Assembly (NCBI RefSeq): GCF_003991155.1
Contig: NZ_CP031295.1
Length of the DNA stretch: 64,000 nt
Origin: Escherichia coli
GTDB lineage: Bacteria; Pseudomonadota; Gammaproteobacteria; Enterobacterales; Enterobacteriaceae
Reading direction: 5' to 3' (one strand)
Shown: positions 1,684-63,955 of the stretch, one piece after another
Position numbering within the stretch: the stretch's first letter is position 1
Layout: every line of letters starts with the position of its first letter
Translations under genes and position numbers: made by a program
The notes under the pieces: model-generated
Told to the model about the DNA's origin: nothing
Seen by the model: only the letters and a program-made list of their open reading frames with translations
Databases searched by the model: none

Positions 1684-3885
1684 ATGATGATAAGCAAAAA
1701 GTATACGCTTTGGGCTCTCAACCCACTGCTTCTTACCATGATGGCGCCAGCAGTCGCTCAACAAACCGATGATGAAACGTTCGTGGTGTCTGCCAACCGC
1801 AGCAATCGCACCGTAGCGGAGATGGCGCAAACCACCTGGGTTATCGAAAACGCCGAACTGGAACAGCAGATTCAGGGCGGCAAAGAGCTTAAAGACGCAC
1901 TGGCTCAGCTGATCCCTGGCCTTGACGTCAGCAGCCGGAGCCGCACCAACTACGGTATGAATGTGCGTGGCCGCCCGCTGGTCGTGCTGGTTGACGGCGT
2001 GCGTCTCAACTCTTCACGTACCGACAGCCGACAACTGGACTCTATAGATCCTTTTAATATCGACCATATTGAAGTGATCTCCGGTGCGACGTCCCTGTAC
2101 GGCGGCGGCAGTACCGGTGGCCTGATCAACATCGTGACCAAAAAAGGCCAGCCGGAAACCATGATGGAGTTTGAGGCTGGCACCAAAAGTGGCTTTAGCA
2201 GCAGTAAAGATCACGATGAACGCATTGCCGGAGCTGTCTCCGGCGGAAATGAGCATATCTCCGGACGTCTTTCCGTGGCATATCAGAAATTTGGCGGCTG
2301 GTTTGACGGTAACGGCGATGCCACCTTGCTTGATAACACCCAGACCGGCCTGCAGTACTCCGATCGGCTGGACATCATGGGAACTGGTACGCTGAACATC
2401 GATGAATCCCGGCAGCTTCAGTTGATCACACAGTACTATAAAAGCCAGGGCGACGACGATTACGGGCTTAATCTCGGGAAAGGCTTCTCTGCCATCAGAG
2501 GGACCAGCACGCCATTCGTCAGTAACGGGCTGAATTCCGACCGTATTCCCGGCACTGAGCGGCATTTGATCAGCCTGCAGTACTCTGACAGCGCTTTTCT
2601 GGGACAGGAGCTGGTCGGTCAGGTTTACTACCGCGATGAGTCGTTGCGATTCTACCCGTTCCCGACGGTAAATGCGAACAAACAGGTGACGGCTTTCTCT
2701 TCGTCACAGCAGGACACCGACCAGTACGGCATGAAACTGACTCTGAACAGCAAACCGATGGACGGCTGGCAAATCACCTGGGGGCTGGATGCTGATCATG
2801 AGCGCTTTACCTCCAACCAGATGTTCTTCGACCTGGCTCAGGCAAGCGCTTCCGGAGGGCTGAACAACAAGAAGATTTACACCACCGGGCGCTATCCGTC
2901 GTATGACATCACCAACCTGGCGGTCTTCCTGCAATCAGGCTATGACATCAATAATCTCTTTACCCTCAACGGTGGCGTACGCTATCAGTACACTGAAAAC
3001 AAGATTGATGATTTCATCGGCTACGCGCAGCAACGGCAGATTGCCGCCGGGAAGGCTACATCCGCCGACGCCATTCCTGGCGGCTCAGTCGATTACGACA
3101 ACTTCCTGTTCAACGCCGGTCTGCTGATGCACATCACCGAACGCCAGCAGGCATGGCTCAACTTCTCCCAGGGCGTGGAGCTGCCGGACCCGGGTAAATA
3201 CTATGGTCGCGGCATCTATGGTGCTGCAGTGAACGGCCATCTTCCTCTAACAAAGAGTGTGAACGTCAGCGACAGCAAGCTGGAAGGCGTGAAAGTCGAT
3301 TCTTATGAGCTGGGCTGGCGCTTTACTGGCAATAATCTGCGTACCCAAATCGCGGCCTACTATTCGATTTCTGATAAGAGCGTGGTGGCGAATAAAGATC
3401 TGACCATCAGCGTGGTGGACGACAAACGCCGTATTTACGGCGTGGAAGGTGCGGTGGACTACCTGATTCCTGATACTGACTGGAGTACCGGAGTGAACTT
3501 CAACGTGCTGAAAACTGAGTCGAAAGTGAACGGTACCTGGCAGAAATACGATGTGAAGACAGCAAGCCCATCAAAAGCGACAGCCTACATTGGCTGGGCA
3601 CCGGACCCGTGGAGTCTGCGCGTGCAGAGCACCACCTCCTTTGACGTGAGCGACGCGCAGGGCTACAAGGTCGATGGCTATACCACCGTGGATCTGCTCG
3701 GCAGTTATCAGCTTCCGGTGGGTACACTCAGCTTCAGCATTGAAAACCTCTTCGACCGTGACTACACCACTGTCTGGGGGCAGCGTGCACCACTGTACTA
3801 CAGCCCGGGTTACGGCCCAGCGTCACTGTACGACTACAAAGGCAGGGGCCGAACCTTTGGTCTGAACTACTCTGTGCTGTTCTGA
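1684..3885 (+). CDS. iutA: ferric aerobactin outer-membrane receptor IutA (TonB-dependent)
   Basis: 733 aa ORF; signal peptide, TonB box ETFVVSA near N-terminus, C-terminal aromatic residue; RBS GGAGG upstream. Confidence 0.9.
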   Translation: MMISKKYTLWALNPLLLTMMAPAVAQQTDDETFVVSANRSNRTVAEMAQTTWVIENAELEQQIQGGKELKDALAQLIPGLDVSSRSRTNYGMNVRGRPLVVLVDGVRLNSSRTDSRQLDSIDPFNIDHIEVISGATSLYGGGSTGGLINIVTKKGQPETMMEFEAGTKSGFSSSKDHDERIAGAVSGGNEHISGRLSVAYQKFGGWFDGNGDATLLDNTQTGLQYSDRLDIMGTGTLNIDESRQLQLITQYYKSQGDDDYGLNLGKGFSAIRGTSTPFVSNGLNSDRIPGTERHLISLQYSDSAFLGQELVGQVYYRDESLRFYPFPTVNANKQVTAFSSSQQDTDQYGMKLTLNSKPMDGWQITWGLDADHERFTSNQMFFDLAQASASGGLNNKKIYTTGRYPSYDITNLAVFLQSGYDINNLFTLNGGVRYQYTENKIDDFIGYAQQRQIAAGKATSADAIPGGSVDYDNFLFNAGLLMHITERQQAWLNFSQGVELPDPGKYYGRGIYGAAVNGHLPLTKSVNVSDSKLEGVKVDSYELGWRFTGNNLRTQIAAYYSISDKSVVANKDLTISVVDDKRRIYGVEGAVDYLIPDTDWSTGVNFNVLKTESKVNGTWQKYDVKTASPSKATAYIGWAPDPWSLRVQSTTSFDVSDAQGYKVDGYTTVDLLGSYQLPVGTLSFSIENLFDRDYTTVWGQRAPLYYSPGYGPASLYDYKGRGRTFGLNYSVLF

Positions 3886-5357: not shown

Positions 5358-6533
5358 ATGTTCAGAATGAGACTCATGGAAACACTTAACCAGTGCATAA
5401 ACGCTGGTCATGAAATGACGAAGGCTATCGCCATTGCACAGTTTAATGATGACAGCCCGGAAGCGAGGAAAATCACCCGACGCTGGAGAATAGGTGAAGC
5501 AGCGGATTTAGTTGGAGTATCTTCTCAGGCTATCAGGGATGCCGAGAAAGCAGGCCGGCTACCGCACCCGGATATGGAAATACGAGGACGGGTTGAGCAA
5601 CGTGTTGGTTATACAATTGAACAAATTAATCATATGCGTGACGTGTTTGGTACGAGACTACGACGTGCTGAAGACGTATTTCCGCCGGTGATTGGAGTTG
5701 CTGCTCATAAAGGGGGCGTTTACAAAACCTCTGTTTCTGTTCATCTTGCTCAGGATCTGGCTCTGAAGGGATTACGTGTTCTGCTCGTGGAAGGTAACGA
5801 CCCCCAGGGAACAGCATCGATGTATCACGGCTGGGTGCCAGATCTTCATATTCATGCAGAGGATACTCTCCTTCCCTTCTATCTTGGGGAAAAGGACGAT
5901 GTCACTTATGCAATAAAGCCTACTTGCTGGCCTGGGCTTGACATTATTCCTTCCTGTTTGGCTCTGCACCGCATTGAAACTGAGCTAATGGGCAAATTTG
6001 ATGAAGGTAAATTGCCCACCGATCCACACCTGATGCTCCGACTGGCCATTGAAACCGTCGCTCATGACTATGATGTCATTGTCATTGACAGCGCGCCTAA
6101 CCTAGGTATCGGCACGATTAATGTTGTATGTGCTGCTGATGTGTTGATTGTCCCCACGCCTGCTGAGTTGTTCGACTACACTTCCGCTCTGCAGTTTTTC
6201 GATATGCTTCGTGATCTGCTCAAAAACGTAGATCTTAAAGGATTCGAGCCTGATGTACGTATTTTGCTTACCAAATACAGTAATAGTAATGGTTCTCAGT
6301 CCCCGTGGATGGAGGAGCAAATTCGGGACGCCTGGGGAAGCATGGTCCTAAAAAATGTTGTGCGTGAAACGGATGAAGTTGGTAAAGGTCAGATCCGGAT
6401 GAGAACTGTTTTTGAACAGGCTATTGATCAACGCTCTTCAACAGGTGCCTGGAGAAATGCCCTTTCTATTTGGGAACCTGTCTGCAATGAAATTTTCGAT
6501 CGTTTGATTAAACCACGCTGGGAGATTAGATAA
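5358..6533 (+). CDS. sopA: plasmid partition ATPase SopA (ParA family, F type)
   Basis: 391 aa ORF; deviant Walker A KGGVYKTS; matches F SopA as I remember it. Confidence 0.95.
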
Positions 6534-7504
6534 TGAAGCGTGCGCCTGTCATTCCAAAACATACGATTAAGACTCAACCGCTTGAAGATACTCCGTCATC
6601 GGCACCAGCTGCACCGATGGTGGATTCGTTAATTGCGCGCGTAGGAGCTATGGCTCGTGGCAATGCTATTACTTTGCCTGTATGTGGTAGGGACGTGAAA
6701 TTTACCCTTGAGGTGCTCCGGGGAGATAGTGTTGAGAAGACCTCTCGGGTATGGTCAGGTAATGAACGTGACCAGGAACTGCTTACCGAAGACGCCCTGG
6801 ATGATCTTATCCCTTCTTTTCTACTGACAGGTCAGCAGACACCAGCATTCGGTCGAAGAGTGTCTGGGGTCATAGAAATTGCCGATGGGAGCCGCCGTCG
6901 TAAAGCTGCTGCACTTACAGAAAGTGATTATCGAGTTCTGGTTGGTGAGCTGGATGATGAGCAGATGGCTGCATTGTCCAGATTGGGTAACGATTATAGG
7001 CCAACAAGTGCTTATGAACGTGGTCAGCGTTATGCAAGCCGATTGCAGAATGAATTTGCTGGAAATATTTCTGCGCTGGCTGATGCAGAAAATATTTCAC
7101 GTAAGATTATTACCCGCTGTATCAACACAGCTAAACTGCCTAAATCAGTTGTTGCTCTTTTTTCTCATCCCGGTGAACTATCTGCCCGGTCAGGTGATGC
7201 ACTTCAAAGAGCTTTTACAGATAAAGAAGAATTACTTAAGCAGCAGGCATCTAACCTTCACGAGCAGAAAAAAGCAGGAGTGATATTTGAAGCTGAAGAA
7301 GTCATCACTCTTTTAACGTCTGTGCTTAAAACGTCATCTGCCTCAAGAACTAGCTTAAGCTCACGACATCAGTTTGCTCCTGGAGCGACAGTGTTGTACA
7401 AGGGCGATAAAATGGTGTTAAACCTAGATAGATCTCGTATTCCAACTGAGTGTATAGAGAGAATTGAAGCCATTCTTAAGGAACTTGAAAAAGCGGCACT
7501 TTGA
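6533..7504 (+). CDS. sopB: plasmid partition protein SopB (ParB family, F type)
   Basis: 323 aa ORF overlapping the sopA stop; matches F SopB; followed by sopC repeats. Confidence 0.95.
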
Positions 7505-7583: not shown

Positions 7584-8100
7584 TGAATATTATATCTGGG
7601 ACCACGGTCCCAGTTGTATTGTCGGTCTGATAATCAGTCTGGGACCACGGTCCCACTCATATTGTCGGTCTGATAATCAGTCTGGGACCACGGTCCCACT
7701 CATATTGTCGGTCTGATTATCGGTCTGGGACCACGGGCCCACTCATATTGTTAGTCTGCTAATCAGTCTGGGACCGCGGTCCCACTCGTATTGTTGGTCT
7801 GCTAATCAGTCTGGGACCACGGTCCCACTCATATTGTCGGTCTGCTAATCAGTCTGGGACCACGGTCCCACTCATATTGTCGGTCTGCTAATCAGTCTGG
7901 GACCACGGTCCCACTCATATTGTCGGTCTGCTAATCAGTCTGGGACCACGGTCCCACTCATATTGTTGGTCTGATTATCGGTCTGCGACCACGGTCCCAC
8001 TCATATTGTTAGTCTGATAATCAGTCTGGGACCGCGGTCCCACTCGTATTGTTGGTCTGCTAATCAGTCTGGGACCACGGTCTCACTTGTATTGTCGATC
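7584..8100 (+). repeat. sopC: sopC centromere: 12 tandem 43-bp repeats
   Basis: 12 copies of a 43-bp unit each containing the palindrome TGGGACCACGGTCCCA, with a few point variants. Confidence 0.9.
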
Positions 8101-8499
8101 TGATTATCAGCGTGAGACTACGATTCCATTAATGCCTGCCAGTGAGTGTGTGGAACATATCTTGGCCAGTGGCTTGGTCTGTGATGTGCTGCGTATACCG
8201 GGTGAACCGCCCCGCCGCTTGTTTGACCGCTATATTCTGCGGGAGTTTTCTTGGAGGCACGGGATGAAATCCGCAGCATGGCGGATGCCCTGGCAAAAAT
8301 CCGGAAATGATGACGATGGCGGGGAAAATCCCCGCCTTTTTCCTGCCGGTCCCCGGACAGAGCACAAAGGAAGTCGCCGCCGGCTCCGCTTTACCCGGCC
8401 ATGCGGGGCATGGCCTTGTGGGGGTTCAGTTATGTGGACGTCGAGTCGTGTGCGGGCTGTGCCGTGCCTCCATCTTAGCCGGGCTGGCGTTGATGCAAG

Positions 8500-11140: not shown

Positions 11141-11334
11141 TGCGGCAACAATCACACGGATTTCCCGTGAACGGTCTGAATGAGCGGATTATTTTCAGGG
11201 AAAGTGAGTGTGGTCAGCGTGCAGGTATATGGGCTATGATGTGCCCGGCGCTTGAGGCTTTCTGCCTCATGACGTGAAGGTGGTTTGTTGCCGTGTTGTG
11301 TGGCAGAAAGAAGATAGCCCCGTAGTAAGTTAAT

Positions 11335-11400
11335 TTTCATTAACCACCACGAGGCATCCCTATGTCTAGTCCACATCAGGATAGCCTCTTACCGCGCTTT
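11335..11400 (-). ncRNA. sok: putative Sok/FlmB antisense RNA of the hok/mok module
   Basis: inferred by position: antisense to the mok start/hok leader; exact ends not determined. Confidence 0.35.
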
Positions 11401-11574
11401 GCGCAAGGAGAAGAAGGCCATGAAACTACCACGAAGTTCCCTTGTCTGGTGTGTGTTGATCGTGTGTCTCACACTGTTGATATTCACTTATCTGACACGA
11501 AAATCGCTGTGCGAGATTCGTTACAGAGACGGACACAGGGAGGTGGCGGCTTTCATGGCTTACGAATCCGGTAA
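11362..11574 (+). CDS. mok: Mok (modulation of killing), overlapping reading frame of the hok module
   Basis: 70 aa ORF in a different frame, covering almost all of hok. Confidence 0.7.
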
Positions 11575-15328: not shown

Positions 15329-15436
15329 AAGAAATTTGACTTCGTTCAAATATCAGAGTTTTTATGATTTAAAAAGGTGACAGTACGAAAGATAATTAGT
15401 ATATTAATTACGTGGTTAATGCCACGTTAAAATTTG

Positions 15437-15515
15437 AATTTGAAAATCGCCGATGCAGGGAGTTCTCTCCTCCCTGCATCGACTGTCCATAGAATCCTTT
15501 GTGAGGAGGTTCCTA
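15437..15515 (-). ncRNA. finP: putative FinP antisense RNA
   Basis: inferred by position antisense to the traJ 5' UTR, which has stem-loops (ccgatgcagggag...ctccctgcatcg); ends not determined. Confidence 0.5.
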
Positions 15516-16204
15516 TGTATCCGATGGATCGTATTCAACAAAAACATGCTCGTCAAATAGATCTGCTGGAAAATCTGACGGCAGTTATTCAGGATTATCC
15601 AAATCCAGCCTGTATCAGGGACGAAACTGGAAAATTTATTTTTTGCAATACGCTGTTTCATGAGTCATTTCTTACACAAGATCAAAGTGCTGAAAAATGG
15701 CTTCTGTCGCAGAGAGATTTTTGTGAATTGATCTCTGTCACAGAGATGGAAGCATACAGGAATGAGCATACGCATCTTAATCTTGTAGAGGATGTTTTTA
15801 TTCAGAACAGATTCTGGACAATATCTGTCCAGTCATTTCTTAATGGACACAGAAATATTATTCTGTGGCAATTTTATGATGCTGCTCATGTTCGTCATAA
15901 AGACAGTTATAATCAAAAAACGATTGTCAGTGATGATATCAGAAATATAATCAGAAGAATGAGTGATGATTCTTCTGTATCATCATATGTAAATGATGTC
16001 TTTTACTTATATAGCACCGGAATCAGTCATAATGCTATAGCAAGAATATTAAATATATCCATCTCCACATCAAAGAAACACGCATCTCTGATATGCGACT
16101 ACTTCTCTGTTTCTAATAAAGATGAGTTAATTATCTTACTCTACAATAAAAAGTTTATTTATTATTTATACGAGAAGGCTATGTGTATCATAAATACGCG
16201 TTAA
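15515..16204 (+). CDS. traJ: TraJ, transfer operon activator
   Basis: 229 aa from MYPMDRIQQKH...; ORF-track upstream extension rejected. Confidence 0.9.
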   Translation: MYPMDRIQQKHARQIDLLENLTAVIQDYPNPACIRDETGKFIFCNTLFHESFLTQDQSAEKWLLSQRDFCELISVTEMEAYRNEHTHLNLVEDVFIQNRFWTISVQSFLNGHRNIILWQFYDAAHVRHKDSYNQKTIVSDDIRNIIRRMSDDSSVSSYVNDVFYLYSTGISHNAIARILNISISTSKKHASLICDYFSVSNKDELIILLYNKKFIYYLYEKAMCIINTR

Positions 16205-36195: not shown

Positions 36196-36927
36196 ATGAA
36201 AACAAAAAAATTGATGATGGTTGCACTGGTCAGTTCCACTCTGGCCCTTTCAGGGTGTGGTGCGATGAGCACAGCAATCAAGAAGCGTAACCTTGAGGTG
36301 AAGACTCAGATGAGTGAGACCATCTGGCTTGAACCCGCCAGCGAACGCACGGTATTTCTGCAGATCAAAAACACGTCTGATAAAGACATGAGTGGGCTGC
36401 AGGGCAAAATTGCTGATGCTGTGAAAGCAAAAGGATATCAGGTGGTGACTTCTCCGGATAAAGCCTACTACTGGATTCAGGCGAATGTGCTGAAGGCCGA
36501 TAAGATGGATCTGCGGGAATCTCAGGGATGGCTGAACCGTGGTTATGAAGGCGCAGCAGTTGGTGCAGCGTTAGGTGCCGGTATCACCGGATATAATTCC
36601 AGTTCTGCCGGTGCCACACTCGGTGTGGGCCTTGCTGCCGGTCTGGTGGGTATGGCTGCAGATGCGATGGTGGAAGATGTGAACTATACCATGATCACGG
36701 ATGTGCAGATTGCAGAGCGTACTAAGGCAACGGTGACAACGGATAATGTTGCCGCCCTGCGTCAGGGCACATCAGGTGCGAAAATTCAGACCAGTACTGA
36801 AACAGGTAACCAGCATAAATACCAGACCCGTGTGGTCTCAAATGCAAACAAGGTTAACCTGAAATTTGAAGAGGCGAAGCCTGTTCTCGAAGACCAGCTG
36901 GCCAAATCAATTGCAAATATTCTCTGA
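36196..36927 (+). CDS. traT: TraT surface-exclusion lipoprotein (also confers serum resistance)
   Basis: 243 aa from [25 protein letters not shown] (lipobox). Confidence 0.9.
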
Positions 36928-36938
36928 TTATCTTCCGG

Positions 36939-36961
36939 AGGCTGGTCTGACCGGCCTCCTG
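36939..36961 (+). terminator. hairpin after traT
   Basis: ggaggctggtctgaccggcctcc inverted repeat. Confidence 0.5.
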
Positions 36962-37179
36962 ACTGACGCCTCGCTTTGCTCGTTGTCCAACCCCGGAAAG
37001 AAATAAAATAAATTTTATTTCTCCCCGGCGTTTCCGAAATAAATATGAAAACAATGAGCGGTTGTGCAAATTCTTTGTGCGACCGTGAAGTGTTGCCGGC
37101 GAAGCCGGAATTTAACGGTTATTAATCTTTTCATCATTAATAATCAGTCCGACTGACTTTCTTTCTTCGGAATATCATC

Positions 37180-39387
37180 ATGAGTTTTAACGCAAAGGAT
37201 ATGACCCAGGGCGGTCAGATTGCGTCCATGCGTATCCGCATGTTCAGCCAGATCGCCAATATCATGCTTTACTGCCTGTTTATTTTTTTCTGGATACTCG
37301 TTGGTCTGGTTTTATGGGTAAAAATAAGCTGGCAGACGTTTGTGAACGGCTGTATTTACTGGTGGTGTACCACGCTGGAAGGTATGCGGGATTTAATCAG
37401 GTCCCAGCCGGTCTATGAGATCCAGTATTACGGCAAAACCTTCCGGATGAACGCTGCTCAGGTACTGCATGATAAATATATGATCTGGTGCGGAGAGCAG
37501 CTATGGTCCGCATTCGTTCTGGCCACAGTTGTGGCACTGGTTATTTGCCTGATTACCTTCTTTGTTGTCTCCTGGATTCTGGGGCGTCAGGGTAAACAAC
37601 AGAGCGAAAATGAAGTCACAGGTGGTCGTCAGCTGACAGACAATCCGAAAGACGTTGCCCGGATGCTGAAAAAAGACGGCAAGGACTCCGATATACGGAT
37701 TGGCGACCTGCCGATTATCCGGGATTCCGAAATCCAGAACTTCTGTCTGCACGGCACGGTCGGGGCCGGTAAGTCGGAAGTTATCCGTCGTCTGGCCAAC
37801 TACGCCCGTCAGCGTGGAGATATGGTGGTGATTTATGACCGTTCAGGGGAATTTGTTAAAAGTTACTATGATCCCTCCATCGATAAAATCCTGAATCCGC
37901 TGGATGCCCGCTGTGCCGCCTGGGATTTGTGGAAGGAGTGCCTGACACAGCCGGATTTTGATAATACCGCGAACACGCTGATCCCGATGGGCACAAAAGA
38001 GGACCCGTTCTGGCAGGGTTCAGGACGTACCATTTTTGCGGAAGCGGCGTACCTGATGCGTAATGACCCCAACCGCAGCTACAGCAAACTGGTGGACACA
38101 CTGCTTTCCATCAAAATCGAAAAACTGCGTACCTTCCTGCGTAATTCACCGGCGGCCAACCTGGTGGAAGAGAAAATTGAGAAAACGGCGATTTCCATCC
38201 GTGCTGTGCTGACCAACTACGTGAAAGCCATCCGTTACCTGCAGGGGATTGAGCATAACGGTGAGTCTTTTACCATCCGTGACTGGATGCGTGGTGTCCG
38301 GGAAGATCAGAAAAACGGCTGGCTGTTTATCTCGTCGAATGCCGACACCCATGCCTCCCTGAAGCCGGTGATCTCCATGTGGCTGTCCATTGCCATTCGT
38401 GGTCTGCTGGCAATGGGAGAAAACCGTAACCGTCGTGTGTGGTTTTTCTGTGATGAGCTACCCACGTTACACAAACTGCCGGACCTGGTGGAGATCCTGC
38501 CGGAAGCCCGTAAGTTCGGTGGCTGTTATGTGTTTGGTATCCAGTCCTATGCCCAGCTGGAAGATATCTACGGTGAGAAAGCGGCTGCCACGCTGTTTGA
38601 CGTCATGAACACCCGTGCCTTTTTCCGTTCTCCCAGCCATAAGATTGCAGAGTTCGCTGCCGGTGAGATTGGTGAGAAAGAGCACCTGAAAGCCAGCGAG
38701 CAGTATTCCTACGGTGCTGATCCGGTACGTGACGGGGTATCGACCGGTAAGGATATGGAGCGCCAGACGCTGGTCAGTTATTCCGACATTCAGTCTCTGC
38801 CGGATCTGACCTGTTATGTCACCCTGCCCGGACCGTATCCGGCAGTAAAACTCTCTCTGAAATATCAGACACGACCGAAGGTCGCTCCGGAGTTTATTCC
38901 GCGTGACATCAACCCGGAAATGGAGAACCGTCTGAGTGCCGTACTTGCCGCAAGGGAAGCAGAAGGTCGTCAGATGGCCAGCCTCTTCGAACCGGATGTG
39001 CCGGAAGTTGTTTCCGGAGAAGACGTGACTCAGGCTGAACAGCCGCAACAGCCGCAACAGCCGCAACAGCCGCAACAGCCGCAACAGCCGCAACAGCCGC
39101 AACAGCCGGTGTCTTCTGCCATCAACGATAAGAAGTCAGATTCAGGTGTGAATGTTCCGGCAGGGGGGATCGAGCAGGAGCTGAAAATGAAACCGGAAGA
39201 AGAGATGGAACAGCAACTGCCACCCGGGATCAGTGAATCCGGTGAAGTGGTGGATATGGCCGCTTATGAGGCATGGCAACAGGAAAATCATCCGGACATC
39301 CAGCAGCAGATGCAGCGTCGTGAAGAGGTGAACATTAATGTGCACCGGGAGCGTGGGGAGGATGTTGAGCCGGGAGATGATTTCTGA
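37180..39387 (+). CDS. traD: TraD type IV coupling protein
   Basis: 735 aa; N-terminal transmembrane segments, Walker [10 protein letters not shown]-terminal (QQP)n repeat tract and acidic tail. Confidence 0.9.
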
Positions 39388-42300
39388 TGATGAGTATCGC
39401 GCAGGTCAGATCGGCCGGAAGTGCCGGTAACTATTATACCGACAAGGATAATTACTATGTGCTGGGCAGCATGGGAGAACGCTGGGCCGGCAGGGGGGCT
39501 GAACAGCTGGGACTGCAGGGCAGTGTCGATAAGGATGTTTTTACCCGTCTTCTGGAGGGAAGGCTGCCGGACGGAGCGGATCTAAGCCGCATGCAGGATG
39601 GCAGTAATAAGCATCGTCCCGGCTACGACCTGACCTTCTCCGCCCCCAAAAGTGTCTCCATGATGGCCATGTTAGGTGGCGATAAGCGCCTGATTGATGC
39701 ACATAACCAGGCCGTGGACTTTGCTGTTCGTCAGGTGGAGGCGCTGGCCTCCACACGGGTTATGACGGACGGACAGTCAGAAACGGTGCTGACCGGTAAT
39801 CTGGTGATGGCACTGTTTAACCACGACACCAGTCGCGATCAGGAACCACAGCTACACACGCATACGGTGGTGGCTAATGTCACGCAGCATAACGGCGAAT
39901 GGAAGACACTGAGCAGTGACAAAGTGGGGAAAACGGGGTTCATTGAGAATGTGTACGCTAATCAGATTGCCTTTGGCAGGCTCTACCGGGAAAAACTGAA
40001 AGAGCAGGTTGAGGCGCTGGGCTATGAAACCGAAGTGGTGGGTAAGCACGGTATGTGGGAGATGCCGGGCGTACCGGTGGAGGCCTTTTCCGGACGCTCA
40101 CAGGCTATCCGGGAGGCCGTCGGGGAAGATGCCTCGCTGAAATCCCGGGATGTGGCGGCACTGGATACGCGAAAATCCAAACAGCACGTCGATCCTGAAG
40201 TCAGAATGGCTGAATGGATGCAGACGCTGAAGGAAACCGGGTTCGACATCCGGGCATATCGTGACGCGGCGGATCAGCGTGCGGAGACCCGCACGCAGGC
40301 GCCCGGGGCTGTTTCACAGGAGGGGCCGGATGTGCAGCAGGCGGTGACACAGGCGATTGCCGGATTAAGTGAACGAAAAGTGCAGTTTACGTACACGGAC
40401 GTGCTGGCCAGAACGGTCGGTATACTGCCGCCGGAAAATGGTGTGATTGAACGGGCACGCGCCGGTATCGATGAGGCCATCAGTCGTGAGCAGCTTATCC
40501 CCCTCGATCGTGAGAAGGGGCTGTTCACATCAGGAATTCATGTGCTCGATGAGCTGTCCGTCCGGGCACTCAGTCGTGACATCATGAAACAGAACCGGGT
40601 GACCGTACATCCGGAGAAAAGTGTCCCCCGGACGGCTGGTTACAGCGATGCGGTCAGTGTTCTGGCACAGGACCGTCCGTCGCTGGCCATTGTGTCCGGG
40701 CAGGGCGGTGCAGCCGGGCAGCGTGAGCGGGTGGCTGAACTGGTCATGATGGCCCGGGAGCAGGGGCGGGAAGTGCAGATTATCGCTGCTGACCGTCGCT
40801 CGCAGATGAACCTGAAGCAGGATGAACGGCTGTCCGGTGAGCTGATAACCGGACGTCGTCAGCTGCTGGAAGGCATGGCTTTCACGCCGGGCAGTACCGT
40901 TATCGTTGACCAGGGCGAAAAACTCTCCCTGAAAGAGACATTAACCCTGCTGGACGGTGCCGCACGTCATAACGTACAGGTCCTGATAACCGACAGTGGG
41001 CAGCGAACCGGTACAGGCAGTGCGCTGATGGCCATGAAGGATGCCGGGGTGAACTCATATCGCTGGCAGGGGGGAGAACAGCGACCGGCCACCATCATCA
41101 GTGAACCGGACCGTAATGTCCGCTATGCCCGGCTGGCCGGAGATTTTGCGGCCAGCGTGAAAGCCGGAGAAGAGAGCGTGGCACAGGTCAGCGGAGTACG
41201 GGAACAGGCCATACTGACACAGGCCATTCGCAGTGAGCTGAAAACACAGGGCGTGCTCGGACACCCGGAGGTAACCATGACCGCCCTGTCACCGGTCTGG
41301 CTGGACAGCCGGAGCCGTTACCTGCGGGATATGTACCGCCCGGGGATGGTGATGGAGCAGTGGAACCCGGAGACACGCAGTCATGACCGCTATGTGATAG
41401 ACCGGGTGACGGCGCAGAGTCACAGCCTGACCCTGCGGGATGCGCAGGGTGAAACGCAGGTGGTGCGTATTTCTTCTCTGGACAGCAGCTGGTCGCTGTT
41501 CCGGCCGGAGAAAATGCCGGTGGCAGACGGCGAGCGTCTGAGGGTGACAGGGAAAATTCCCGGACTCCGCGTCTCCGGCGGTGACCGCCTGCAGGTGACA
41601 TCCGTCAGTGAAGATGCGATGACGGTTGTTGTGCCGGGACGTGCTGAACCGGCCTCCCTGCCTGTGGCTGATTCACCGTTCACGGCACTGAAGCTGGAGA
41701 ACGGCTGGGTGGAAACGCCCGGGCATTCCGTCAGCGACAGTGCGACGGTTTTTGCCTCCGTCACACAGATGGCAATGGACAACGCCACCCTGAACGGTCT
41801 GGCCCGCAGCGGTCGTGATGTCCGGCTGTATTCATCGCTGGATGAAACCCGTACTGCGGAAAAACTTGCCCGCCATCCCTCCTTTACGGTGGTTTCTGAG
41901 CAGATAAAGGCGCGTGCCGGTGAGATATTGCTGGAAACCGCTATCAGTCTGCAGAAAGCAGGGCTTCACACGCCGGCACAGCAGGCCATTCATCTGGCCC
42001 TTCCTGTGCTGGAAAGTAAAAACCTGGCCTTCAGCATGGTGGACCTGCTGACAGAGGCGAAGTCGTTTGCTGCAGAAGGAACCAGTTTTACTGACCTGGG
42101 AGGGGAAATCAATGCGCAGATAAAACGCGGTGATTTACTGTATGTGGATGTGGCAAAAGGCTATGGCACAGGCCTGCTGGTTTCCCGTGCGTCGTATGAG
42201 GCTGAAAAAAGCATTCTTCGCCATATTCTCGAAGGTAAGGAGGCGGTCACGCCGCTGATGGAGAGAGTACCTGGCGAACTCATGGAGAAACTGACATCAG

Positions 42301-44657
42301 GACAGCGCGCCGCCACCCGCATGATACTGGAAACGTCCGACCGTTTCACGGTGGTGCAGGGCTATGCCGGTGTGGGGAAGACCACACAGTTCCGGGCGGT
42401 GATGTCAGCCGTGAACATGCTGCCGGAGAGTGGGCGTCCCCGTGTCGTGGGGCTGGGTCCCACGCACCGCGCGGTCGGGGAGATGCGCAGCGCCGGCGTG
42501 GATGCACAGACACTGGCGTCATTTCTGCATGACACGCAGCTGCAGCAGCGCAGCGGAGAAACACCGGATTTCAGCAACACGCTGTTCCTGCTCGATGAGA
42601 GCTCAATGGTGGGCAATACCGACATGGCACGGGCATACGCCCTGATTGCGGCCGGTGGTGGTCGTGCCGTGGCCAGCGGTGACACGGACCAGCTGCAGGC
42701 CATCGCGCCCGGTCAGCCTTTCCGTCTCCAGCAGACGCGCAGTGCTGCCGATGTGGCTATCATGAAAGAGATTGTGCGTCAGACGCCGGAACTGCGGGAG
42801 GCGGTATACAGCCTGATTAACCGGGATGTGGAAAGGGCATTGTCCGGGCTTGAGAGTGTGAAACCGTCTCAGGTGCCTCGTCAGGAGGGCGCATGGGCAC
42901 CGGAGCACTCTGTGACGGAGTTCAGTCACAGCCAGGAAGCGAAACTGGCAGAAGCGCAGCAGAAGGCGATGCTGAAAGGCGAGGCTTTCCCGGATGTCCC
43001 CATGACACTGTATGAAGCCATTGTCCGCGACTATACCGGCAGAACACCGGAAGCACGGGAGCAGACGCTGATTGTCACGCACCTGAATGAGGACCGGCGC
43101 GTACTGAACAGCATGATTCATGATGCACGGGAAAAGGCCGGTGAGCTGGGGAAAGAGCAGGTCATGGTGCCTGTCCTGAACACAGCGAATATACGCGACG
43201 GAGAGCTGCGTCGTCTCTCCACCTGGGAGACACATCGGGACGCACTTGTCCTGGTGGATAATGTGTATCACCGGATTGCCGGTATCAGTAAGGATGACGG
43301 GCTGATAACCCTGCAGGATGCGGAAGGTAACACGCGGCTGATTTCGCCCCGGGAGGCGGTGGCTGAAGGCGTCACACTGTACACCCCGGACACCATCCGG
43401 GTAGGGGCCGGTGACCGGATGCGCTTCACGAAGAGTGACCGGGAGCGTGGTTATGTGGCCAACAGCGTCTGGACGGTGACAGCGGTTTCCGGTGACAGTG
43501 TCACGCTGTCGGGCAGACAGCAGACCCGGGTGATTCGCCCCGCCCAGGAGCGGGCAGAGCAACATATTGACCTGGCCTATGCCATCACCGCTCACGGTGC
43601 GCAGGGGGCAAGTGAAACCTTTGCCATCGCGCTTGAAGGTACGGAAGGCAGCCGGAAACTGATGGCTGGCTTTGAGTCAGCCTACGTGGCCCTGTCGCGT
43701 ATGAAGCAGCATGTGCAGGTGTACACCGATAACCGTCAGGGCTGGACGGATGCCATTAACAATGCCGTACAGAAAGGAACAGCCCACGATGTGTTTGAAC
43801 CGAAACCGGACCGGGAGGTCATGAATGCAGAGCGGCTGTTCAGTACGGCGCGGGAGCTGCGGGACGTGGCGGCAGGGCGTGCCGTTCTTCGTCAGGCGGG
43901 GCTTGCCGGGGGAGACAGTCCTGCACGGTTTATTGCTCCGGGACGTAAATATCCACAGCCGTATGTGGCACTGCCGGCGTTTGACCGTAACGGCAAGTCT
44001 GCCGGTATCTGGCTGAACCCGCTGACCACGGATGACGGAAACGGGCTGCGGGGATTCAGTGGTGAAGGCCGTGTGAAAGGCAGCGGGGATGCGCAGTTCG
44101 TGGCCCTGCAGGGCAGCCGTAACGGCGAGAGCCTGCTGGCTGATAATATGCAGGATGGTGTCCGGATTGCCCGTGATAACCCCGACAGCGGTGTGGTGGT
44201 GAGAATCGCCGGTGAAGGTCGTCCGTGGAATCCCGGTGCCATCACCGGTGGCCGCGTGTGGGGGGATATCCCGGACAACAGCGTCCAGCCGGGAGCCGGA
44301 AATGGCGAGCCGGTCACGGCAGAGGTACTGGCACAGCGGCAGGCTGAAGAGGCCATCCGCCGTGAAACGGTACGCCGCGCAGATGAAATTGTCCGTAAAA
44401 TGGCAGAGAACAAACCTGACCTGCCGGACAGCAAAACAGAGCAGGCTGTCAGGGAGATTGCCGGGCAGGAGCGTGACCGGTCTGCCATATCTGAACGGGA
44501 AGCCGCGCTGCCGGAGAGTGTGCTGCGTGAATCACAACGGGAGCGGGAAGCTGTCAGGGAAATTGCCCGGGAAAATCTGCTGCAGGAGCGTCTGCAGCAG
44601 ATGGAACGGGATATGGTTCGTGACCTGCAGAAAGAGAAAACCCTGGGCGGAGACTGA
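39387..44657 (+). CDS. traI: TraI relaxase-helicase
   Basis: 1756 aa; N-terminal relaxase with catalytic tyrosines (..GNYYTDKDNYYVLG..) and HTH..H motif, central and C-terminal helicase domains (GYAGVGKT Walker A). Confidence 0.95.
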   Translation: MMSIAQVRSAGSAGNYYTDKDNYYVLGSMGERWAGRGAEQLGLQGSVDKDVFTRLLEGRLPDGADLSRMQDGSNKHRPGYDLTFSAPKSVSMMAMLGGDKRLIDAHNQAVDFAVRQVEALASTRVMTDGQSETVLTGNLVMALFNHDTSRDQEPQLHTHTVVANVTQHNGEWKTLSSDKVGKTGFIENVYANQIAFGRLYREKLKEQVEALGYETEVVGKHGMWEMPGVPVEAFSGRSQAIREAVGEDASLKSRDVAALDTRKSKQHVDPEVRMAEWMQTLKETGFDIRAYRDAADQRAETRTQAPGAVSQEGPDVQQAVTQAIAGLSERKVQFTYTDVLARTVGILPPENGVIERARAGIDEAISREQLIPLDREKGLFTSGIHVLDELSVRALSRDIMKQNRVTVHPEKSVPRTAGYSDAVSVLAQDRPSLAIVSGQGGAAGQRERVAELVMMAREQGREVQIIAADRRSQMNLKQDERLSGELITGRRQLLEGMAFTPGSTVIVDQGEKLSLKETLTLLDGAARHNVQVLITDSGQRTGTGSALMAMKDAGVNSYRWQGGEQRPATIISEPDRNVRYARLAGDFAASVKAGEESVAQVSGVREQAILTQAIRSELKTQGVLGHPEVTMTALSPVWLDSRSRYLRDMYRPGMVMEQWNPETRSHDRYVIDRVTAQSHSLTLRDAQGETQVVRISSLDSSWSLFRPEKMPVADGERLRVTGKIPGLRVSGGDRLQVTSVSEDAMTVVVPGRAEPASLPVADSPFTALKLENGWVETPGHSVSDSATVFASVTQMAMDNATLNGLARSGRDVRLYSSLDETRTAEKLARHPSFTVVSEQIKARAGEILLETAISLQKAGLHTPAQQAIHLALPVLESKNLAFSMVDLLTEAKSFAAEGTSFTDLGGEINAQIKRGDLLYVDVAKGYGTGLLVSRASYEAEKSILRHILEGKEAVTPLMERVPGELMEKLTSGQRAATRMILETSDRFTVVQGYAGVGKTTQFRAVMSAVNMLPESGRPRVVGLGPTHRAVGEMRSAGVDAQTLASFLHDTQLQQRSGETPDFSNTLFLLDESSMVGNTDMARAYALIAAGGGRAVASGDTDQLQAIAPGQPFRLQQTRSAADVAIMKEIVRQTPELREAVYSLINRDVERALSGLESVKPSQVPRQEGAWAPEHSVTEFSHSQEAKLAEAQQKAMLKGEAFPDVPMTLYEAIVRDYTGRTPEAREQTLIVTHLNEDRRVLNSMIHDAREKAGELGKEQVMVPVLNTANIRDGELRRLSTWETHRDALVLVDNVYHRIAGISKDDGLITLQDAEGNTRLISPREAVAEGVTLYTPDTIRVGAGDRMRFTKSDRERGYVANSVWTVTAVSGDSVTLSGRQQTRVIRPAQERAEQHIDLAYAITAHGAQGASETFAIALEGTEGSRKLMAGFESAYVALSRMKQHVQVYTDNRQGWTDAINNAVQKGTAHDVFEPKPDREVMNAERLFSTARELRDVAAGRAVLRQAGLAGGDSPARFIAPGRKYPQPYVALPAFDRNGKSAGIWLNPLTTDDGNGLRGFSGEGRVKGSGDAQFVALQGSRNGESLLADNMQDGVRIARDNPDSGVVVRIAGEGRPWNPGAITGGRVWGDIPDNSVQPGAGNGEPVTAEVLAQRQAEEAIRRETVRRADEIVRKMAENKPDLPDSKTEQAVREIAGQERDRSAISEREAALPESVLRESQREREAVREIARENLLQERLQQMERDMVRDLQKEKTLGGD

Positions 44658-46169: not shown

Positions 46170-46382
46170 ATGAATGGATTCAGAAACAGTTCACGGAACG
46201 GTCAGGTCTGGCGTTACCAGCGTGCCGGCGGGCGGGCCGTTATTCTGGAGGTCAGTGGACGCTGGATGGAAGCGGCAGAAGCATGGCGACGGGCTGCCTG
46301 TGTTACGCCCCGGACAGACTGGCAGCAGTTTGCCCAAAAAAGGGCTGAACACTGCCACCGGCGCTGCCGGGGAAGGGGGTAA
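46170..46382 (+). CDS. hypothetical protein (70 aa, Cys/His-rich C-terminus)
   Basis: ORF with strong RBS AAGGGAGGGG 8 bp upstream; no family recognised; an overlapping 87-aa ORF in another frame (46174-46437) is the alternative. Confidence 0.35.
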   Translation: MNGFRNSSRNGQVWRYQRAGGRAVILEVSGRWMEAAEAWRRAACVTPRTDWQQFAQKRAEHCHRRCRGRG

Positions 46383-46771
46383 CGAAAAAAGCAGCCTTCA
46401 TTACACCAGAAGTCAGAAGGCTGAAAGGAGTTTATGAGATTTGCTTTTTTTAGTTTCATCTTCATACCTTATTGGGTGTATTAAAAACAGTAGGCTGCCA
46501 AAGTTTTAAACAAGTTTCAATTCTCCATGACTGCTCAGCATCAGCCAGAGGGAATTCCCATTCTGGACCAGCGGGAGCATACGAATAATAATTTACGGGT
46601 TTCCCCGCTCCCGGCGTTTTTGTAACAAAAACAGGCAAATGGGGGTAATAGTCAGCAACAGGGAATGTGGTATTATCGCGGCGGGTGTCTGAGCCTTTCT
46701 GGTTCAGGCAAGACGCAGGTACCAGAAATGCGAAGACCCCACTCGTTAATCCATTAACTCGTGAGGTCTGC

Positions 46772-46978
46772 ATGAAGTACCTTAACACTACTGATTGTAG
46801 CCTCTTCTTTGCAGAGAGGTCAAAGTTTATGACGAAATATGCCCTTATCGGGTTGCTCGCCGTGTGCGCCACTGTGTTGTGTTTTTCACTGATATTCAGG
46901 GAACGGTTATGTGAGCTGAATATTCACAGAGGAAATACAGTGGTGCAGGTAACTCTGGCCTACGAAGCACGGAAGTAA
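46772..46978 (+). CDS. srnB: SrnB/PndA-type Hok-family type I toxin
   Basis: 68 aa MKYLNTTDCSLFFAERSKFMTKYALIGLLAVCATVLCFSLIFRERLCELNIHRGNTVVQVTLAYEARK; antisense RNA expected on the opposite strand around 46700-46780 (not delimited). Confidence 0.8.
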   Translation: MKYLNTTDCSLFFAERSKFMTKYALIGLLAVCATVLCFSLIFRERLCELNIHRGNTVVQVTLAYEARK

Positions 46979-47589: not shown

Positions 47590-47690
47590 CAGGGAACTGG
47601 TTCTGATGTGGATTTACAGGAGCCAGGAAAGTGAAAACCCCGATAATCTTCTTCAAGTTTGGCGACTAGAAAGATTATCGGGGCCCCATA
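47590..47690 (-). ncRNA. copA: putative CopA antisense RNA
   Basis: inferred by position in the repA1 leader; contains an inverted repeat ccccgataatcttc...gaagattatcgggg that could form the major stem-loop; ends not determined. Confidence 0.45.
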
Positions 47691-47734
47691 AAACCACATA
47701 GCCAACAATTCAGCTATGTGGGGAGTATAGTTAT

Positions 47735-60816: not shown

Positions 60817-61791
60817 TTATTGACTCAAATTTCTGTCAAGGACTTCGTTGATAGCCTTGTCCAGTTCATCCTGAATCACTTTTGACATACGGCTAAACTC
60901 ATAAGTCAGCGTGCGCCCTTTCACACGCTTACGCGCGAACTTGTCCTTTTCTTCAAAAGACCAGAGTGGGGAAACCACTGACTTTTCCTTGGGAGATGGA
61001 TCTATCAATGCCTGAGATGCCTGAGAAATCAGCTTCAGAATACTGGCTTTCTGTTCGTCTTCTGGTCGCTCGCCATCACTCAAAATTGCATCGAGCTGAG
61101 CTGATACAGACTGAATGAGTTCTTCAGGCGTTAATCCCTTTTCACCGAGTTTTTCATTAACTTCTAAAAGAAGTTTATAATCACTAAACGATAGCTCCGA
61201 CTGAACCGGGAACAGAGAAATTAAGTCTTGCGGTACGGCCGCCGCCTGCAGCGCCCTGGTAACTTTAGCCTGAGATAATCCCTCCAGTTCAGCAATTTCC
61301 TTTTGATTAAATCCGGACTCTTTAAGAGCGATCAATCTCAGACCAATCTCCCGAAGATTATGTTCTTTAGCTGTCTGGATATCTTTAGCCAGTTGGCGAG
61401 CTTCATCAGCTGATAAATGTTCTTCGGTAACCATTACATCAAGGCCTGTACGGACAAAAATTGCTGAGGCTCGCCGTCTTGAACCATCCAGTATCTCAAT
61501 CCTTTCACTTTGCTTAATACCAATACAGGGAAAGAACTGCTGAAACTTAATCGTCTGGATAATGGATTTCAGAGACTCCCTGGTCAGTGCAAGTTGATCT
61601 CTTCCATTGTTTTCCTGGTTTACGAAGGTCTTACTTTCAACTTCAGATGCAGGCACCCGAACAAACCTGAACGTTACCTTCCTGCCGGTTTTTAAGGTAA
61701 ATACCTGACTTCTACCGGTGTCAGCCATTTCGAGCATTGACGCCTGAGTATTTAACTGTCTGCCGATGGTTTTTCTTTTCTCATTCGACAT
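60817..61791 (-). CDS. parB: ParB partition protein (P1/P7 type)
   Basis: starts MSNEKRKTIGRQLN...; HTH region ...GLSQAKVTRALQAA...; start overlaps the parA stop. Confidence 0.85.
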   Translation of the reverse strand: MSNEKRKTIGRQLNTQASMLEMADTGRSQVFTLKTGRKVTFRFVRVPASEVESKTFVNQENNGRDQLALTRESLKSIIQTIKFQQFFPCIGIKQSERIEILDGSRRRASAIFVRTGLDVMVTEEHLSADEARQLAKDIQTAKEHNLREIGLRLIALKESGFNQKEIAELEGLSQAKVTRALQAAAVPQDLISLFPVQSELSFSDYKLLLEVNEKLGEKGLTPEELIQSVSAQLDAILSDGERPEDEQKASILKLISQASQALIDPSPKEKSVVSPLWSFEEKDKFARKRVKGRTLTYEFSRMSKVIQDELDKAINEVLDRNLSQ

Positions 61792-62996
61792 CACATACCT
61801 CCGTTAGTACGAATGAACTCGATGCGATCAAAGACTGCCTTCGCAAAGTCTTCCGCTGCTGATTTTGCGCTTTTTAGTGCCTCTGTACTTCCATCATAGG
61901 TTGCTGGATTTGCTGAAATAACTGTGTCAAAAGTCTCCCCACAACGTTCGAAACCATCCAGTCTTGGCAGAACCATGTCTAGCATATCGGCACCGAAAAC
62001 CTCTTTGGCCTGACTATGGCAAATTTTGTGATCAGACTTGTTCAGGATCTTGGACATGAAGCCGACATTACCGATGAGATTGCAGGTGTGCCCATCCATT
62101 TCGATGGAATCTATGAGGGCAGGGAGGCTGGCCACAAACTTCAGGGAAGAATGAAAATCAACCGTCGCCGGTGGAAGAGGGGTCAACATCAGGTCTGCCG
62201 CCCCAATGCAGTTTTTCAGGAACGCATCAAGGTGAGGACCACTATCAAGGAAAATAAAGTCGTAGTCATGCTGGAGCTTGTCGATAATGTTCTCTTTAAG
62301 CACCGCATGAATATTTTTCCCTGGCAGATGTTCTTCACACAATCCCTTCCAGCCTTCAGCAAGGAATGCATCGTCAATGGAAGCGGGGATTACATCAACA
62401 CCAGGGATAATAGACGGTACTATAAAATCGGAAAGTAATTCTTCACGAGACACGTTCTGGAGCATGGCCTGAGCAGCCGTATTTTCAACCAAGCCCACTG
62501 AATTCTCATGGCTCAGGAACATTGTCAGAGATGCCTGCGGATCGAAATCGATGGCCAGAATACGCAGGTCTTCGAACAGAAGCTGAGGATGAGCTCGAAA
62601 AGCATGTGATAATGAAGCGGTAGAAACTGTCTTGGAACCACCACCTTTAAGATTACATACAAAAATCGTAAAGGCTTTATCGAAGCGATCCCTGTACTTC
62701 GGTACTTTACGATGGTTATACAGATCGATGACATTCTGAATCGTCATCGCGTATTTCATCGTATTACCAGAAGGTTTCTTTTTAAAAATGTAGCCACCGG
62801 CTTCCATTTCGGACACAGCATACTCAACACTGCCTTTACTGAGCTTAGGCAGCTTATACAGAGCGGCTTTGCTGTATTCCTGATAGAACTCGGTAAGCTT
62901 CAATTCCTCTTTTTGCTGTCGGATACTTTCGCTCAAAGATGTCAGAAGCTTACCTGCACGTGTAGCGACTTTCCGTAACTGCTCAATATTGTCCAT
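61791..62996 (-). CDS. parA: ParA partition ATPase (P1/P7 type, type Ia with N-terminal regulatory domain)
   Basis: 401 aa; deviant Walker A CNLKGGGSKTVST; ~100-aa N-terminal extension typical of autoregulating type Ia ParA. Confidence 0.9.
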   Translation of the reverse strand: MDNIEQLRKVATRAGKLLTSLSESIRQQKEELKLTEFYQEYSKAALYKLPKLSKGSVEYAVSEMEAGGYIFKKKPSGNTMKYAMTIQNVIDLYNHRKVPKYRDRFDKAFTIFVCNLKGGGSKTVSTASLSHAFRAHPQLLFEDLRILAIDFDPQASLTMFLSHENSVGLVENTAAQAMLQNVSREELLSDFIVPSIIPGVDVIPASIDDAFLAEGWKGLCEEHLPGKNIHAVLKENIIDKLQHDYDFIFLDSGPHLDAFLKNCIGAADLMLTPLPPATVDFHSSLKFVASLPALIDSIEMDGHTCNLIGNVGFMSKILNKSDHKICHSQAKEVFGADMLDMVLPRLDGFERCGETFDTVISANPATYDGSTEALKSAKSAAEDFAKAVFDRIEFIRTNGGM

Positions 62997-63060: not shown

Positions 63061-63391
63061 TATTGTTTTGATTTCGCTCTCAACAGAAGGGGGATGAAGC
63101 TCGACGGGCGTGCTACTAAATCACACTGCAGCAACACGCAGACGCACTTTTGACCATCAACAGCAACTCATACAAAAGGGCTTTGAGAAAGGTATTCAAC
63201 TTGCAAGACAGGAGAGTCATTCAGAAGGATTCTGATTTTAGTTACGACCAGTGCAATGCTGAGCCTTATGTATCAGCGCTCGCCGCAGCCATGTAACCGA
63301 GCGTAGCGAGCGAACTGGCGAGGAAGCGAAGAGGAACCGTTCCGGCAGATAGCTCTTACGCTCAGCACAAGAAGAGTTTTCCATCCTCTGT

Positions 63392-63955
63392 GGGAAACAG
63401 GTCAACTTTAATGGACGCTCCGGACTATGGGAAACAGGTCAACTTCGCGGACGGCCCGGACTATGGGAAACAGGTCAACTTCACGGGCGGCCGGGAGTGT
63501 GGGGAACAGGTCAACTTCGCGGACGGCCCGGACTATGGGAAACAGGTCAACTTCGCGGGCGGCCGGGACTGTGGGAAACAGGTCAACTTTGCAGACGGCC
63601 CGGACTGTGGGAAACAGGTCAACTTCGCGGGCGGCCGGGAGTGTGGGGAACAGGTCAACTTCGCGGACGGCCCGGACTAAGGGAAACAGGTCAGCTTCTC
63701 GGACGGCCCGGACTATGGGAAACAGGTCAACTTCTCGGACGGTCGGGAGTGTGGGAAACAGGTCAACTCCGCGTACGGCCCGGACTGTGGGAAACAGGTC
63801 AACTTTGCAGACGGCCGGGACTGTGGGAAACAGGTCAACTTTGCAGACGACCGGGACTGTGGGAAACAGGTCAACTACGCAGACAGCCGCGATTGCGGGA
63901 AACAGGTCAAGTTAGGCAAGCACTATGGGAAACACAGCAAGTTCAGTATCCCCCC
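63392..63955. repeat. tandem array of about 15 iteron-like direct repeats (period 35-37 bp)
   Basis: core GGGAAACAGGTCAACTT every 35-37 bp with a variable GC-rich spacer; the six-frame ORFs across it are 12-residue peptide repeats, i.e. translation artefacts. Confidence 0.85.

Follow-up and report, generated by a model that had tools for sequence, protein, structure and literature searches.

A 9-bp in-frame coding repeat of variable copy number in traD of IncF plasmids and its probable role as a length-variable spacer

Coding tandem repeats whose copy number is altered by slipped-strand mispairing are familiar from the simple-sequence contingency loci of Haemophilus, Neisseria, and Campylobacter, whose units of 1-7 nt either cannot be divided evenly by three or sit in promoters, and which switch expression on or off. 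In the conjugative coupling protein TraD of F-like plasmids, a variable "QQP motif" region was described within the C-terminal extension (Lang et al. 2011, Mol Microbiol 82:1071, PMC3245843, Fig. 8), whose length was heterogeneous in related plasmids, with QPQQP (5 residues) in F and 23 residues in R1. At the DNA level, a 9-bp VNTR in traD (PSLT104) of the Salmonella Typhimurium plasmid pSLT was sized by PCR and had 5-19 repeats in 220 isolates (Hiley et al. 2019, PLoS One 14:e0215207, PMC6459517); it was presented as a typing marker, and the protein tract was not discussed. The acidic tail of TraD is known to bind the tetramerisation domain of TraM and to give plasmid specificity (Wong et al. 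2011; Lang et al. 2011; a 2020 review). Both the variability of the protein and the VNTR behaviour of the DNA are therefore already known.

The sequence analysed here, referred to as the window, is a stretch of 64,000 nt from Escherichia coli contig NZ_CP031295.1. It represents an IncF plasmid backbone with sopAB, a sopC-like array, FinP/traJ, the tra operon, finO, hok/sok, CopA/repA, and Tn3. The features at and around the traD repeat are as follows:

37180-39387, plus strand: traD, F-type type IV coupling protein of 735 aa (NCBIfam, Pfam, and annotation in identical plasmids)
39001-39207, plus strand: segment predicted to be disordered, TraD aa 608-676, which has the tract in its middle (AlphaFold2 and alignment; hypervariable and indel-rich in homologues)
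39038-39108, plus strand: perfect tandem array with unit AACAGCCGC, equal to CAACAGCCG or CAGCCGCAA (TRF, sequence, and unit dissection)
39040-39108, plus strand: codons of the QP(QQP)7 tract of 23 residues, TraD aa 621-643 (by translation)
39109-39384, plus strand: conserved 92-aa C-terminal module ending in the acidic tail (conservation in the alignment of TraD C-termini)
39387-44657, plus strand: traI, relaxase/helicase (ORF and annotation of the identical locus L020)

The gene that carries the repeat had been named TraD in the initial annotation, and this identity is borne out by a match to the NCBIfam model NF010254 spanning residues 1-735 of the 735-aa product (1695.7 bits against a cutoff of 1221), by TIGR02759 (833.6 bits against a cutoff of 521), and by the Pfam domain architecture, which comprises TraD_N (PF12615, aa 32-128), TrwB_AAD_bind (PF10412, aa 172-561), and TraG-D_C. 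According to the ORFs and the annotation of locus L020, the gene order traT-traD-traI is that of the F-like tra operon, and the traD stop overlaps the traI start at 39387. This direct overlap is shared by the window and its close relatives, which have no insert at the junction, whereas in classic F (L007, an F' record, locus 2643-3268) and pSLT (L022, locus 36570-37198) an opposite-strand vapBC/mvpAT toxin-antitoxin pair lies between traD and traI.

TRF reported a single array at 39038-39108, with a period of 9, 7.9 copies, 100% matches, no indels, and a score of 142, and this array falls inside the interval first assigned to the repeat (39037-39112), which exceeds it by margins of 1-4 nt. In the CAGCCGCAA register there are seven full copies from 39040 followed by CAGCCG, whereas unit dissection gives eight units when the array is counted as GAACAGCCG plus 7 x CAACAGCCG. 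The codons run GAA (E), CAG-CCG, seven times CAA-CAG-CCG, and GTG (V), so that the original description of about eight cagccgcaa copies encoding a QPQQPQQP-type product in TraD is correct, the translated stretch being E-QP(QQP)7-V, in frame. Chance is excluded as the origin of such an array, as it contains 62 lag-9 matches in succession (probability about 4^-62), and among the six tandem arrays of the window it is the only one with 100% matches.

Repeat number was compared across F-like traD alleles with a 688-bp BLAST query (38700-39387), which matched 3,986 plasmid records and 2,803 of 5,426 complete E. coli genomes; 58 plasmid rows and 58 E. coli rows, spaced evenly down the rankings, served as systematic samples. 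The matched span differed from 688 bp by a multiple of 9 in 57 of the 58 plasmid rows and 57 of the 58 E. coli rows (114/116 together). These samples comprised 19 length classes in the 58 plasmids and 16 in the 58 E. coli records, over a range of 625-796 bp; they are given as length classes because unit numbers read from the span would be wrong by one in a lineage built of CAACAGCCA units, whose left flank (EPEVASGE) is 9 nt shorter. The most frequent class, at about 23%, was the F-type length.

Exact unit counts were obtained from 21 fetched loci that were dissected at the DNA level and, with the window, provide 22 alleles. Their counts were 2 (classic F, L007), 2, 4, 4, 5, 5, 5, 6, 6, 8, 8, 10, 10, 11, 11, 12, 13, 18, 19, 19, 20, and 21. 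Every array was internally pure across the 219 units, and, except in L009, all length differences among the dissected alleles fell inside the array. The IncF plasmids with 2-21 units came from E. coli, Shigella, Salmonella, and Klebsiella. The number of repeats is thus not invariant in F-like traD, as 2-21 units in 22 alleles and 19 length classes in 58 plasmids demonstrate. In 19 of the 20 dissected plasmid loci besides that of the window, traD was annotated or translated intact, with products of 714-774 aa.

Several records deviated from this pattern. The one exception to an intact traD, L010 (NZ_CP128879.1), has an intact 19-unit array but no listed traD CDS, and translation from the traD start ends before the tract, which may reflect a frameshifted gene or a pseudogene. 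At about 2300-2500 of its locus, L009 (NZ_CP124478.1) has 11 CAACAGCCA units, then a second copy of the left flank derived from a different allele (PEVASGEGVNQAQ), and then 3 more units; this higher-order duplication points to alleles having recombined unequally at the array. A span of 689 bp in H123 (NZ_CP023367.1) is a single-base length anomaly, and L021 (NZ_CP101667.1) has a 1-nt indel within the 14.9 kb downstream of the array; both anomalies could be either real frameshifts or homopolymer sequencing errors. The C-terminal 188 aa were also searched against a set of 5.8 billion proteins, with scoring confined to the 8,000 candidates that had the most words in common with the query, a choice in which Q-rich words prevail; as the matches were mostly partial fragments, they served for distant homologues only and not for counts of tract length.

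It might be argued that these differences in copy number come from public records in which a short tandem repeat was mis-assembled, and that the true array hardly varies. At lengths of up to 189 bp, the arrays are longer than some reads, short-read assembly could struggle with them, and many TraD entries in the databases are "partial", with short contigs over the C-terminal region (one example, P0050, has 860 member sequences, and its longest contig is 539 nt). However, almost every difference amounts to a whole multiple of 9 in pure units, the same counts recur independently (37 records with 5 units and two duck isolates with 21), and F and R1 differed already in classical sequences, with 5 and 23 tract residues, respectively. 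Furthermore, the PCR sizing that gave 5-19 repeats at the orthologous pSLT locus does not depend on assembly (Hiley et al. 2019). Assembly artefacts are hence very improbable as the source of the variation and are largely refuted, although some differences between records could be errors.

Comparison of nearly identical plasmids provides an indication of how readily the array changes. The window region 30000-54000 and the corresponding part of pCP52E-IncFIB (L020, NZ_CP075732.1) have 8 and 5 units, respectively, with 0 mismatches in 9,037 + 14,892 = 23,929 flanking nt. Similarly, pM171-1.1 (L021) has 6 units and differs from the window in its flanks by 0 mismatches and one 1-nt indel, and three plasmids of about 75 kb (L002, L005, and L015) have 20, 21, and 18 units with 0 mismatches over 4,550 flanking nt. 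The array therefore alters faster than point substitutions build up in about 24 kb. Among the best 60 of the 3,986 plasmid matches, the 42 whose 688-bp flanks are 100.0% identical have 5 (37 records), 8 (two), 12 (two), or 13 (one) units, whereas the 18 at 99.9% identity show eight different counts from 11 to 21. The greater diversity of long arrays hints at length-dependent instability, a reading that is only suggestive, as these identity classes may mix lineages. Two independent duck isolates both had 21 units. On the other hand, over epidemiological time spans the array is not hypermutable, as E. coli, Salmonella, and Shigella from several countries and hosts share the exact 5-unit allele without change (37 records among the best 60).

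The same count does not imply close relationship. The allele L004 has 8 units like the window but differs at 12 of 4,550 flanking positions, whereas plasmids with flanks identical to those of the window have 5 or 6 units, an example of size homoplasy. Two flank lineages can be distinguished: the window, F, and pSLT use CAACAGCCG only, whereas the other lineage uses CAACAGCCA only and has the left flank that is shorter by 9 nt, with about 4-5% flank divergence between them. A single synonymous difference in the unit has thereby been homogenised over up to 19-21 units, and scattered substitutions are absent. Such homogenised unit types are the signature of continual unit turnover (concerted evolution) rather than of an old static repeat.

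Taken together, the repeat is very probably an in-frame coding VNTR in which slippage or unequal exchange changes the length of a flexible, disordered spacer. Perfect head-to-tail 9-bp units (CAA-CAG-CCG, encoding Q-Q-P) could misalign during replication (strand slippage) or in unequal exchange between plasmid copies, and such misalignment would lead to the gain or loss of whole units. As the unit is three codons, the reading frame is kept at every change, and only the Gln/Pro-rich segment in the middle of the linker grows or shrinks. The suspicion of a slippage hot spot is strongly supported by whole-unit changes in pure arrays, which differ on flanks without a mismatch over 23.9 kb. The mechanism may be slippage, unequal recombination, or both. 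Homologous exchange has enough length to work with in arrays of 72-189 bp, and L009, which looks like a product of unequal recombination, points to recombination. Two other candidates were rejected. Hairpin-promoted slippage is unnecessary, and the ssDNA fold of neither strand beats its shuffles (z = +0.75 and +0.84). A phase-variation on/off switch is incompatible with a 9-nt unit, with multiples of 9 in 114 of 116 rows, and with a tract inside the CDS, 1.86 kb from its start.

The tract had been placed near the C-terminus of TraD, which is right, and just before the acidic tail, which is imprecise, since 92 residues come after it. TrwB of R388, the only solved homologue by sequence, has crystal structures that align to TraD aa 161-573 only, so the tract belongs to the structurally unsolved C-terminal extension. 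The alignment of 15 TraD C-termini (48-99% identity) has a conserved block upstream that includes LAAREAE...LFEPD, then an indel-rich hypervariable stretch that holds the tract, and then the conserved module downstream. In distant TraDs, the hypervariable stretch has just a short kernel, namely EQPQQL, GQPQQPQQL, or GQPQPQPIQQPQQP, with QPQQ as the kernel, and other distant TraDs have an unrelated A/P/V/S-rich sequence at this position. Between the window and classic F, the block after the tract differs at one position only (VSSAIND versus VSPAIND), and the tail, ...VEPGDDF, is identical.

An AlphaFold2 model of aa 540-735 assigned pLDDT values of 33-42 (below 50) and no secondary structure to fragment residues 69-137 (aa 608-676), with confident helices on either side at aa 579-603 (pLDDT 81-93) and aa 693-715. 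The predicted disorder fits the wording "unstructured extension" in the literature, and it is supportive rather than conclusive because the model was built from a shallow alignment of 15 sequences only, with a pTM of 0.22. In functional terms, the tract may belong to a flexible spacer that has the ATPase body on one side and the conserved C-terminal module on the other. The linker would join the TrwB-like ATPase body (to about aa 575-603) to the 92-residue module, whose acidic tail would dock on TraM at oriT. By sequence, the tail of the window can be likened to the homologous acidic tail of F TraD, which is the TraM binder, and the earlier remark that this region matters for coupling-protein contacts agrees with the literature, which ties the C-terminal extension of TraD to docking of TraM and the relaxosome.

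Tract length might itself be subject to selection, diversifying or lineage-specific, as an adaptive tuning knob, acting through the reach or avidity of the TraD tail for TraM and the relaxosome or through susceptibility to RNA phage (R17). The number of QQP units would then set how far, or how many, tails reach the TraM tetramers on oriT, or would affect entry of R17-type phages, and the mutable array would work as a "rheostat", which seems doubtful. The difference in QQP length between F and R1 was noted by Lang et al. (2011), who also suggested that variation of the TraD C-terminus may underlie plasmid-specific requirements of R17, with phage resistance driving the diversification of type IV coupling proteins, and the flexibility of the TraD tail matters in the avidity model of Wong et al. 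(2011). The broad length distribution, with characteristic ranges in some lineages, is also in line with tuning. Instability may in addition depend on length: among the best 60 of the 3,986 matches, the long-array lineage has 8 lengths in 18 records and the short-array class one length in 37 of 42. Nevertheless, a search of the literature returned no functional test of tract length, and mutation pressure alone yields pure arrays with size homoplasy. Distant TraDs with unrelated low-complexity sequence at this position imply that a specific sequence or length is apparently not required, and classic F, which has two units only, is a standard transfer-proficient plasmid. Selection on tract length is therefore an unlikely, if conceivable, explanation. 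In view of classic F with its two units and of the unrelated linkers in distant TraDs, broad tolerance of length is the default expectation, and the length changes may be tolerated as near-neutral variation of a spacer rather than acting as a switch of function. Effects of length on the reach or avidity for TraM, on regulation of the ATPase, or on RNA-phage entry are conceivable.

Apart from any role in TraD, the repeat could act at the level of nucleic acid, as a structured RNA, an iteron-like protein-binding array, or an antisense-encoded peptide. Iteron-like arrays that work as DNA do occur in the window, and they are listed below together with its partition genes and Rfam matches above the gathering score:

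5358-6533: sopA (NF010259, 872 bits)
6533-7504: sopB (NF010252, 636 bits)
7595-8110: tandem array of 12 x 43 bp with 91% matches, directly downstream of sopA and sopB
11246-11422 and 46683-46841, plus strand: two sok antitoxin RNAs
15410-15521: FinP with the traJ 5'UTR
42236-42312, minus strand: AS-traI antisense RNA, inside traI
46279-46462, minus strand: AS-pc02
47629-47717, minus strand: CopA
60817-62996, minus strand: second ParA-like/ParB-like pair, transcribed away from the array at 63388-63910 and weakly matching the SopA/SopB models
63388-63910: tandem array of 14.5 x 36 bp with 86% matches, upstream of the second ParA-like/ParB-like pair

The array at 7595-8110 is the F-type sopC partition centromere, and that at 63388-63910 is probably the centromere of the second partition system, whose region is most frequent in Klebsiella plasmids (1,554 of 2,601 matching records). 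An ORF of 162 aa (63427-63915) overlaps the 36-bp array and may be spurious. The Rfam set (AS-traI, AS-pc02, sok, CopA, and FinP with the traJ 5'UTR) is as expected for an IncF backbone.

Besides the sopC-type and the second partition-associated array, a mechanical antisense ORF of 211 aa (38467-39102) that covers the repeat could be cited for a nucleic-acid role. This ORF was rejected as a candidate gene: it is an (LLR)n by-product of the repeat with no supporting evidence. The search of the window against Rfam families gave no match at the array, and folds of both strands were no better than those of shuffled sequences (z = +0.75 and +0.84). In addition, the unit consists of three codons in frame and is homogenised at a synonymous site, and its copy number varies 10-fold. 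A function independent of TraD is accordingly highly implausible, and the in-frame coding VNTR with a length-variable spacer is the reading kept here.

The repeat has only modest practical implications. As a marker that evolves fast, the array can tell apart otherwise identical epidemic IncF resistance plasmids, as shown here on 24 kb without a mismatch, and the repeat of pSLT has already been put to such use; owing to size homoplasy, it is unreliable for deep phylogeny. It may also trouble short-read assembly, with contigs that may break nearby, and it affects the clustering and annotation of TraD proteins because length variants are treated as different proteins. If it were true that tract length affects TraD-TraM coupling or phage entry, the repeat would offer a simple natural handle on conjugation efficiency; if tuning holds, F-like plasmids would have a rapidly adjustable control of transfer efficiency, specificity, or phage sensitivity, that is, an evolvability device.

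Compared with the systems described before, the traD repeat is an ordinary finding, as its polymorphism is real but published (Lang et al. 2011; Hiley et al. 2019). What is added is incremental and consists of the range of 2-21 units, differences in copy number between plasmids whose backgrounds match over 24 kb, two synonymous unit types that have each been homogenised, and size homoplasy. When the unit sequence itself was sought in the literature, only unrelated primer matches were obtained, and the published pSLT primers, with up to 3 mismatches allowed, had no match in the window; orthology to pSLT was established instead from the pSLT sequence and the alignment of TraD C-termini. In traD of pSLT LT2, AACAGCCGC occurs 10 times at CDS nt 1859-1948, from codon 620, and is bracketed by the published primers. 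The two arrays thus share the same unit, are aligned at the orthologous codon position, and have a similar copy range, whereas the flanks of pSLT have diverged from those of the window (at the protein level, the C-terminal 196 aa are about 77% identical). Like the contingency loci, the traD array is a coding tandem repeat of changing copy number; unlike them, its unit is 9 nt long and always in frame, and it provides no on/off switch. The closest counterpart is the QQP region of Lang et al. (2011), which is of the same family and has the same position and motif: the classic F allele (L007) encodes QPQQP as in that report, the tract of the window has 23 residues like that of R1, and there is no essential difference between the two.
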